64,000 nucleotides of DNA, taken from positions 409,357 to 473,356 of the forward strand of contig JBFWNW010000001.1 in NCBI GenBank assembly GCA_050250855.1. The letters are read 5' to 3'. A model generated the notes under the pieces. It ran no database searches. It had not been told where the DNA came from and saw only the letters and a program-made list of their open reading frames with translations. The stretch comes from Candidatus Babeliales bacterium (GTDB taxonomy: Bacteria > Babelota > Babeliae > Babelales > JACPOV01). The position numbers and the translations under genes were made by a program. Shown piece after piece: positions 54,721 through 55,282 of this stretch. The number at the start of each line of letters is the position of its first letter. The first letter of the stretch is position 1.

Positions 54721-54888
54721 ATGGAAGAAAAAAATAAACAATGCGCAAGCTGCTGCGATCGCTGCAAATCTAAAAAAAGTTCTTGCAAACAATGCCCCAC
54801 AACGCAAAGCTGTTGCAAATCATGCAAAGACTGTTGTTATGATTGCAAAAAGCAATGCATAAAAACCTGTGCAGGTAAATCATGTTAA
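54721..54888 (+). CDS. 55-aa cysteine-rich (16 Cys) metallothionein-like peptide, below the ORF-track cutoff
   Basis: Manual translation: MEEKNKQCASCCDRCKSKKSSCKQCPTTQSCCKSCKDCCYDCKKQCIKTCAGKSC. An aggaaa RBS lies upstream. There is no signal peptide. Confidence 0.55.
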   Translation: MEEKNKQCASCCDRCKSKKSSCKQCPTTQSCCKSCKDCCYDCKKQCIKTCAGKSC

Positions 54889-54898
54889 AGGTTCTACG

Positions 54899-55282
54899 AT
54901 GATAATATCAATTTTTTTAGTATCATTGATTGGCTTTGCACTTTCCTATTATGCCTACAACCTTGAGCAAAAAATAGAAAAAAATCCTTTTTATAAACCA
55001 GTATGCGATATTTCTGATCGCTTTTCCTGCTCAAAGCCTATTTTGAGCCAGTATGGAAAGCTCTTTGGTTTTTCTAATGCACTTGCTGGCATGGTCTATT
55101 ATGCAACCACCGCGATTTTAGCGCTTATGGGGCAGGCAACCATTCTCTTTTATTGCGCACTAGCTGCATTGCTAGCATCATGTGTATTGGCATACATTTT
55201 ATATGCTCGTATAAAAACAGTTTGTTTGATATGCACGGCAATTTATATGGTTAATATCATACTCTTTTTGCTTACTTATTAA
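54899..55282 (+). CDS. Vitamin K epoxide reductase (VKOR) family protein, strikingly VKORC1-like
   Basis: The loop PVCDISDRFSCSKPILSQYGKLFG compares with human VKORC1 [24 protein letters not shown]. TM4 carries the CxxC as CLIC. There are four hydrophobic helices. I prefer the start MIISIFLV. Confidence 0.8.
   Translation: MIISIFLVSLIGFALSYYAYNLEQKIEKNPFYKPVCDISDRFSCSKPILSQYGKLFGFSNALAGMVYYATTAILALMGQATILFYCALAALLASCVLAYILYARIKTVCLICTAIYMVNIILFLLTY

Follow-up and report, generated by a model that had tools for sequence, protein, structure and literature searches.

A cysteine-stripe peptide gene beside an animal-type VKOR gene in Babeliales

A cysteine-rich peptide gene directly precedes a VKOR gene in a Babeliales genome. 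The stretch of DNA analyzed here (the window) comprises 64,000 nucleotides of a Candidatus Babeliales bacterium (G000:C1:409357-473356), whose genome measures 1.22 Mb with 36% GC and is divided into 11 contigs. Two adjacent genes near the end of the window are our subject: an unannotated gene for a short peptide, here called the Cys-stripe peptide, and a downstream gene for a stand-alone VKOR of the VKORC1 type (Table 1). Both had been singled out in an initial annotation of this DNA, which gave the same translation for the small open reading frame (ORF) as found here and rightly noted a ribosome-binding site; the sequence AGGA lies 6 nt before its ATG. The cysteine count is 15 and not 16 as stated there, and the spacer between the peptide gene and VKOR (ATG at 54899) measures 10 nt and not 11 nt in G000, the label used for the genome that carries the window. 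The N-terminus of the peptide (MEEKNKQ...) is charged and has no hydrophobic stretch, so that a signal peptide is lacking, in agreement with the earlier description. The peptide contains one Tyr and no His, Trp or Phe, has CC and CXXC but no CXC motifs, and carries a net charge of about +7. The comparison with metallothioneins that had been drawn for it holds for composition (55 aa, 27% Cys, few aromatic residues).

The peptide ORF is a real gene under purifying selection and not a chance frame, as judged from its cysteine fraction, its syntenic homologues, its low ratio of non-synonymous to synonymous substitution rates (dN/dS) and synonymous variation of its cysteine codons. Of the 8,724 ORFs in the genome that encode 30-150 aa, only one has a higher Cys fraction, and that ORF is 36 aa long. 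The arrangement upstream of VKOR is conserved in relatives: Cys-rich ORFs of 57 aa lie between a conserved upstream gene, here termed gene X, and VKOR in 'Candidatus Babeliales bacterium isolate SW_22' (genome G001, locus L052), which belongs to the same genus, and on the metagenomic contigs L022 and L023 (G and L labels denote genomes and loci of relatives, g and f labels genera and families). Across these syntenic copies 13-14 cysteines are invariant, and AGGA/AGGG or AAGGA is found at the position equivalent to the ribosome-binding site in all three loci. Between the G001 and L022 genes, 12 changes are synonymous and 3 non-synonymous, giving a dN/dS of 0.03. Deeper pairs with an estimable dS yield values of 0.16-0.33, with synonymous sites saturated in two pairs. 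Within the cysteine codons themselves, synonymous TGT/TGC variation is observed in 12 of 14 invariant columns.

The VKOR resembles the animal type in sequence far more than the Synechococcus type, Synechococcus alone representing classical bacterial VKORs in this comparison, with actinobacterial and proteobacterial VKORs outside it. The 127-aa protein matches the Pfam family PF07884 with 92.2 bits (cut-off 27.5) over profile positions 3-133 of 134 and contains no thioredoxin (Trx) domain, which bears out the initial annotation on both points. Residues C36, C44, S50 (human S57), C109, C112 and N119 are invariant in an alignment of 28 sequences, and Y116 of the active-site motif CLICTAIYMVN is invariant in a separate comparison. 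The equivalent residue Tyr139 is universal in animal VKOR clades and rare in prokaryotic ones (Bevans 2015, PMC4555120). A single-sequence phmmer search of the PDB returned Takifugu VKORL (63 bits, 3.7e-16) and human VKORC1 (40 bits, 6e-9), while Synechococcus VKOR was not detected at E<=10. With a family profile that includes some eukaryotic rows, the scores are 125 bits for Takifugu VKORL, 108 bits for human VKORC1 and 25-30 bits for Synechococcus VKOR. A search of 1.84 billion representative proteins gave only 763 matches at E<=1e-3, and the best 150 of these include beetle VKORC1L1 (44-45% identity) as well as one protein each from an ostracod and from Woesearchaeota. We place this protein closer to animal than to ordinary bacterial VKORs for two reasons, the outcome for Synechococcus and the scarcity of detectable homologues. 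The resemblance to human VKORC1 that had been pointed out earlier is thus well founded, with vertebrate proteins as the only PDB matches, the beetle identity and the equivalents of Tyr139 and Asn142 all in its favor.

The similarity to animal enzymes has clear limits. Vertebrate and invertebrate VKORC1/VKORC1L1 proteins (Takifugu VKORL, PDB 6wv9; human VKORC1, PDB 6wv3; beetle XP_025836511.1) share with the window VKOR a single-domain core of four transmembrane (TM) segments, a first loop that is rich in Lys and Arg and contains CX7C followed by Ser, and a CXXC motif with the equivalents of Tyr139 and Asn142 after it. The insertion characteristic of animal loops (human Leu65-Asn77) is absent, leaving a 13-residue gap relative to Takifugu, human and beetle, and so are the K/R-rich cytosolic N- and C-terminal tails. 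The setting differs as well, as the bacterium shows no quinone prenyltransferase and, unlike in the animal VKOR setting, we know of no epoxide-generating carboxylase in this organism. VKORs that replace DsbB, such as the Synechococcus VKOR-Trx fusion (PDB 3kp9/4nv2) and the actinobacterial five-TM enzymes, belong to the same Pfam family and share the four catalytic cysteines and presumably the chemistry, in which quinone is reduced as thiols are oxidized; for the window VKOR, a Trx-fold protein would be the presumed partner in this quinone-dependent reaction. In contrast to these enzymes it lacks a fifth TM helix and a Trx domain, and G000 has no DsbA partner for it.

This type of VKOR is widespread in Dependentiae and DPANN archaea. 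The loop motif YKxxCD[ILV][ST][DE]xxSC[ST]K, searched in one genome for each of 185,579 species, occurs at 50 loci, all encoding short VKORs and distributed over Dependentiae/Babeliales, eight DPANN archaea, one Peribacteria metagenome-assembled genome (MAG) and some loosely labelled MAGs. Among 261 Dependentiae genomes, 76 encode the enzyme. In a tree with Synechococcus as the sole classical bacterial outgroup (branch length 10), eukaryotes form one moderately supported clade (82/86) inside a polytomy with Dependentiae and DPANN sequences, and the window VKOR pairs with that of a Babeliales MAG (98/80); its nearest relative is the VKOR of SW_22. Judged by sequence and tree, the window VKOR is a member of an established prokaryotic (Dependentiae/DPANN) clade. 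The term eukaryote-like used in the initial annotation is therefore right as a statement of similarity, while the enzyme is not an isolated oddity and the loop insertion of animal enzymes is missing. Recent transfer from a eukaryotic host is unsupported, the gene being widespread and diverse in Dependentiae and the tree not nesting it within eukaryotes. A gene for a DoxX-family membrane protein (PF07681) comes directly after VKOR in 10 of 13 Babeliales relatives; in G000 the DoxX gene is located elsewhere (C1:299834). Of the 41 genomes searched, G000 among them, 27 yielded neither VKOR nor DsbB, indicating that VKOR is an accessory gene and not an order-wide substitute for DsbB. Proteins of this VKOR type are already annotated in databases, and we found no publication on its occurrence in Dependentiae/DPANN, its charge bias or the VKOR-DoxX pairing.

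The Cys-stripe peptides form an undescribed, mostly unannotated family that is restricted to Babeliales. Of 261 Dependentiae genomes examined by a six-frame hidden Markov model search, 15 contain signal-less members of 55-75 aa. These genomes represent eight genera, of which g1 belongs to family f1 and the other seven to family f19. The consensus of 18 members is M-x4-C-x3-C-x2-CC-x2-CKE-x-C-x3-C-(8-10-residue loop)-C-x3-C-x-GCC-x2-C-x3-C-x3-C, and each peptide consists of two arms of the form C-x3-C-x2-(C)C-x2-C-x3-C-x3-C. Plotted at 100 degrees per residue, the cysteines of each arm fall on one face in nearly all members (R ~0.8, p<=0.002 against shuffles). Net charge ranges from strongly basic in the G000 copy to strongly acidic in the G245 copies while Cys positions stay fixed, which speaks for a role in thiol chemistry and against one in binding nucleic acids. 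All members have charged N-termini and no hydrophobic segment. A chlamydial OmcA/CrpA-type envelope cross-linking protein was considered and rejected because of these charged N-termini and the lack of a signal peptide or lipobox.

Several genomes show elaborations of the family. In G245 (C1:1422912-1425175, loci L040/L041) five Cys-stripe paralogues in tandem are interspersed with genes for signal-peptide-bearing ankyrin-like proteins, and one of the paralogues carries a 40-residue His-rich tail. His/Cys-rich peptides adjoin the Cys-stripe gene in G240. In genus g102 (L101:5231-6210, L102:4938-6225) the gene follows groES-groEL, a DUF6496 gene and genes for one or two hydrophilic Q/N/G/K-rich proteins of 71-78 aa that end in GWCxAHxGPKAKCNCE, a cluster that looks stress-related. 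In the contexts examined, the Cys-stripe gene is accompanied by gene X and by genes for RuvC, ankyrin proteins, GroESL and small hydrophilic proteins. A search of a word-indexed protein database with the four syntenic peptides returned no matches, because most copies have not been called as genes. The 18-sequence alignment retrieved 14 database proteins, all unnamed or labelled 'hypothetical protein' and without a Pfam domain, and no Pfam or NCBIfam model fits the family above its cut-off. No publication on such peptides in Dependentiae was found.

The cysteine pattern is consistent with a cytoplasmic metal store. The peptide is predicted to fold into two short amphipathic helices with a joining loop, in which the thiols of each arm would line one helix face. 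Most likely it would bind or store soft metals (Cu(I), Zn, Cd) as thiolate clusters, and we consider the chances about even that it is a cytoplasmic metal-thiolate or thiol-buffer protein comparable to metallothionein, MymT or Csp3. Two peptides may dimerize into a Cys-lined four-helix bundle, similar to these proteins or to a half-size Csp3, and such a metal sink would buffer metal and oxidative stress inside an amoebal host. This metal-binding interpretation is supported by the cysteine periodicity, the fixed cysteines, the His-rich tail in G245, the His/Cys-rich neighbors in G240, circumstantially the stress-like cluster of g102, the hints of Csp likeness, the missing signal peptide and the metal inventory of G000, where the only P-type ATPase (C2:157856, 890-aa frame) is of the P2 type with a PEGL motif and without CPC, so that no CopA/ZntA-type exporter was detected. 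G000 also encodes a small exported HMA-domain protein (C2:107864-108064).

Known thiol-based metal stores offer close parallels. Csp3 and Csp1 (DUF326, PF03860; PDB 5nqo, 5fje, 3lmf) direct cysteines spaced as C-x2-C and C-x3-C from one helix face into a bundle core, as is predicted for the peptide, and Csp3 is cytosolic and signal-less. In contrast, the peptide is half the size, with two helices instead of four, which would make a dimer necessary, its Cys density is higher (27%), and it shows no significant homology to Csp. The window peptide itself is not matched by PF03860, while one family member reaches 17.7 bits (E=0.0035, cut-off 20.4) and a PDB search gave a weak family match to 3lmf (E=8.1). 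Metallothioneins such as MymT and cyanobacterial SmtA are likewise small, Cys-rich, nearly free of aromatic residues and signal-less. They differ in that C-X-C is absent from the G000 copy and in that the peptide has regular helical periodicity, whereas classical metallothioneins have a metal-induced fold. The MymT gene of the intracellular pathogen M. tuberculosis was similarly an unannotated small Cys-rich ORF, and its product is needed for copper resistance (review PMC7558416).

Other uses of a cysteine-dense peptide appear much less probable. The stripes could ligate an iron-sulfur cluster or another cofactor, making the peptide a mini-protein such as a small cluster carrier, an idea to which the high Cys density and the g1-clade motif C-x3-C-x3-C-x2-C-P, loosely reminiscent of the ferredoxin motif C-x2-C-x2-C-x3-C-P, lend some appeal. 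The spacing is nevertheless unlike known Fe-S motifs, the Cys-Pro pair is absent from f19 members and the very weak RnfB/FarE-type matches (E about 2-3) are not significant, leaving this a very unlikely assignment. We regard it as highly improbable that the gene encodes the precursor of a radical-SAM-modified, Cys-rich ribosomally synthesized and post-translationally modified peptide of the Cxxx-repeat type. TIGR04118, TIGR04114 and TIGR04117 show a sub-threshold likeness (best E=0.088, 12.8 bits against a cut-off of 35), and together with DUF326/Csp these models provide the only hints, weak ones, of a family relationship. No radical-SAM enzyme, peptidase or exporter adjoins the gene in about 10 contexts, and conservation spans the whole peptide without a division into leader and core. 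The lack of a maturase among the neighbors and the below-threshold profile matches led us to reject this candidate.

Cys-rich peptides recur beside VKOR in two lineages. The Cys-stripe gene adjoins VKOR in all four g1-clade loci, with spacers of 10-87 nt. In genus g21 only, a second, metallothionein-like peptide type of 51-57 aa, rich in Cys and His (MERSGSCNCGAGKSCK...HPCKECK), is encoded convergently with and within ~1.1 kb of VKOR-DoxX in all three copies. This type (MERSGSCNCG...HPC...) has no detectable relation to the Cys-stripe family. In a 1.2-Mb genome, a single locus would fall within 1.1 kb by chance in ~0.2% of cases and within 26 kb in ~4%; the Cys-stripe genes of three f19 genera are located 10.5, about 15 and 26 kb from VKOR, and in five of six assessable genera a peptide gene is found no more than 26 kb away from it. 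Two independent immediate adjacencies combined with these low odds make an accident unlikely, and the second peptide type beside VKOR-DoxX favors a genuine connection, direct or indirect, of VKOR with peptides rich in cysteine. In G000, the 10-nt spacer and the lack of a detectable terminator-like site within it make co-transcription or translational coupling plausible, and the two genes are probably co-transcribed. The peptide would then be expressed together with a VKORC1-type, quinone-dependent thiol oxidase, possibly also in physical contact with it, and the two may be parts of one thiol/metal-stress module.

A number of observations weigh against a metal-storing peptide that works in a module with VKOR. 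On the side of the genome, most members of the peptide family are sited away from VKOR, the two genes are 476-611 kb apart in genus g102, and three near-complete genomes carry the peptide without VKOR. The 87-nt spacers of G001 and L022 contain their own TTGACA promoter-like box, indicating that an operon arrangement is not conserved and that the tight coupling in G000 is the result of a local deletion. On the side of the peptide, metallothionein families of Pfam/NCBIfam gave no match at E<=10 (10 members) or E<=1 (17 members), and homology to metallothioneins or Csp proteins does not reach significance for the family as a whole. Two AlphaFold runs produced helical models of low confidence (pLDDT 62.6 and 68.1), a Foldseek search of the PDB with the peptide models returned no match, and neither a metal transporter nor a metal-sensing regulator was found near the Cys-stripe gene in the contexts examined. 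The co-transcription proposed in the initial annotation therefore stands as plausible for G000 but not as a conserved arrangement, and the proposed peptide-VKOR link gains from the second peptide type in g21 and loses by the scattered location of the family and by the genomes without VKOR.

The same observations raise the question of whether the two genes are unrelated neighbors. The peptide would then be a metal or redox buffer, and VKOR would independently oxidize exported Trx/PDI-like proteins of the periplasm in place of DsbB, their adjacency having been inherited without a function. The restriction of the immediate adjacency to one narrow clade, the separate promoter-like box, the predominance of peptide loci elsewhere and the usual pairing of VKOR with DoxX all agree with this explanation. 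It has difficulty accounting for a second peptide type that was placed independently beside VKOR-DoxX and for the proximity in most assessable genera given the chance expectation per locus, and we hold it to be rather unlikely.

The charge distribution of Babeliales VKORs is opposite to that expected for outward-facing enzymes. Topology was inferred from charge counting alone: among 45 prokaryotic homologues, Lys plus Arg (K+R) residues average 8.2 on the catalytic side (loop 1 and loop 3) and 1.2 on the other side, 42 of the 45 have no K/R before TM1, and the window VKOR has 8 and 0, respectively. Eukaryotic members possess an extra 5-12 K/R in their cytosolic tails, and the aligned core of Synechococcus VKOR, its termini outside the comparison, is balanced (3 versus 3). 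By the positive-inside rule, the active sites of Babeliales VKORs are predicted to face the cytoplasm, and we assign roughly even odds to this inward orientation. To our knowledge, every characterized bacterial and eukaryotic VKOR faces outward, and animal VKORs carry the same loop charges and yet are lumenal, both of which weigh against an inward enzyme. The exported Trx-type proteins and DsbD of G000 weigh in the same direction. Giant-virus VKORs of the eukaryotic type, which also have a K/R-rich first loop, had no outward function in E. coli until their charges were rebalanced by removing three from loop 1 and adding one to loop 2, and they failed inward as well (PMC13486548, PNAS 2026). 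The archaeal ApVKORi of Aeropyrum pernix, according to the same paper, naturally faces inward (PMC13486548). It offers a precedent for the cytoplasm-facing catalytic cysteines that are predicted here from charge bias only, but stems from a hyperthermophile that uses cytoplasmic disulfides.

The redox inventory of G000 leaves several candidate partners for VKOR. Neither DsbA (PF01323, PF13462) nor DsbB was found in the genome; among the 41 relatives DsbB is absent from all and DsbA-like matches occur in only three. No UbiA/MenA-type prenyltransferase was found in G000, while all 14 control genomes have one, so that any quinone would come from the host, and cytochrome bd was not found either. 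The genome does encode a DsbD-like protein, an exported Trx (CGPC) and an exported, PDI-like protein with two Trx domains. Exported proteins with 2-3 Trx domains are also present in G001, G002, G013 and G025, all of them VKOR-positive, and their occurrence mainly in VKOR-bearing genomes is a weak hint of a connection; Trx domains match in every genome, which leaves a phyletic test for an exported Trx partner uninformative. Two paralogous fusions of thioredoxin reductase and thioredoxin (TrxR-Trx), with active sites CAIC/CPSC and CTIC/CPTC, begin with a TM anchor followed by a Lys-rich stretch, which makes it probable that their catalytic part is held at the membrane on the cytoplasmic side.

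These partners, together with the charge bias, allow a direct cytoplasmic redox couple in which VKOR is inserted inward like ApVKORi and the signal-less peptide serves it as a thiol substrate or as a source of electrons. VKOR could zip the helices with disulfides, possibly releasing metal, or pass electrons to a host-derived quinone, and the couple is compatible with the peptide also binding metal. Besides the charge counts, the rescue of viral VKORs by charge rebalancing and the ApVKORi precedent (PMC13486548) speak for it, as do the missing DsbA and DsbB, the two unrelated signal-less peptide types beside VKOR in two lineages and the TrxR-Trx fusions, which could re-reduce the system. The outward orientation of characterized enzymes, the lack of inward function in viral VKORs, the genomes with the peptide but without VKOR, and the presence of DsbD with exported Trx and multi-Trx proteins, implying periplasmic thiol chemistry in need of an oxidant, speak against it. 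On balance we judge the couple unlikely. A broader proposal, in which an inward VKORC1-type enzyme in Dependentiae/DPANN oxidizes cytoplasmic dithiols via host quinone, Cys-rich peptides were recruited at least twice as dedicated substrates and TrxR-Trx possibly re-reduces them, is tentative and seems to us improbable in its entirety.

The genes flanking the peptide-VKOR pair give context. Gene X encodes a conserved Dependentiae protein of unassigned function without a Pfam match. Of 261 Dependentiae genomes, 102 have a single-copy homologue, located far from VKOR, and within family f1 the gene is confined to genus g1. Gene X was rejected as a partner of VKOR because these 102 genomes carry it at VKOR-unrelated loci. 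Downstream of VKOR and convergent with it lies a minus-strand frame (window positions 55279-56127) whose 282-aa product combines a FUT8/NodZ-type fucosyltransferase domain (PF19745, 32.7 bits) with an N-terminus that resembles a signal peptide. Further upstream, positions 52175-53107 of the plus strand encode a 310-aa exported protein with two near-identical halves of ~150 aa, indicating an internal tandem duplication, and positions 53111-53638 encode a related exported protein of 175 aa. The coordinates of the features discussed are collected in Table 1.

Table 1. Features of the peptide-VKOR locus and related loci; positions are those of the window unless a genome (G) or locus (L) label is given.
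Feature	Position	Strand	Remarks
Gene X	54230..54712	+	160 aa from the Met matching the G001 start; longest ORF starts at 54158 (184 aa)
Shine-Dalgarno-like AGGAAA	54711..54716	+	AGGA at 54711-54714, 6 nt before peptide ATG; overlaps gene X TAG
Cys-stripe peptide gene	54721..54888	+	ATG start, TAA stop; 55 aa, 15 Cys (27%), 11 Lys; unannotated
AAAGG, possible ribosome-binding site for VKOR	54887..54891	+	Overlaps peptide TAA; read from sequence
Stand-alone VKOR	54899..55282	+	127 aa, 4 TM (four hydrophobic segments), VKORC1 type
VKOR loop cysteine pair C36...C44 (CDISDRFSC)	55004..55030	+	Equivalent to human C43/C51; aligned with human and Takifugu
VKOR active-site CLIC C109/C112, then Y116, N119	55223..55255	+	Equivalent to human C132/C135, Tyr139, Asn142
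TrxR-Trx fusion	5225-6670	+	N-terminal TM anchor, then Lys-rich stretch
Paralogous TrxR-Trx fusion	G000:C2:58201-58485 region		N-terminal TM anchor, then Lys-rich stretch
Exported double-Trx protein (PDI-like)	G000:C4:23651-24643	-	Signal peptide; CGVC and CAPC; also L105-L108
VKOR-DoxX loci	L003:1498-2304, L004, L005, L007-L009, L012-L015		
Second peptide type	L057:6125-6607	-	
Second peptide type	L087:5377-5550	+	
Second peptide type	G025:C1:398128-398598		
Second peptide type	G130:C1:925377-925526		

Overall, the Cys-stripe peptides are a small-protein family, so far unannotated and tested here for selection, from a phylum that is known almost entirely through metagenomes, and their simple predicted design, a cysteine stripe on a helical hairpin, is directly testable for metal storage. 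The animal-type VKOR occurs widely in both Dependentiae and DPANN archaea, two groups that live as obligate symbionts, and the failure to find DsbA, DsbB or quinone synthesis in G000 raises the question of which substrate and which quinone this enzyme uses. The uniform violation of the positive-inside rule in the clade poses a clear question of topology that is open to experiment, and the answer bears on the origin of the odd charge distribution of eukaryotic VKORC1. If the broader proposal were true, enzyme, peptides and possibly the TrxR-Trx fusions would make up a previously unknown cytoplasmic module for quinone-linked thiol oxidation or metal release in mesophilic symbionts.

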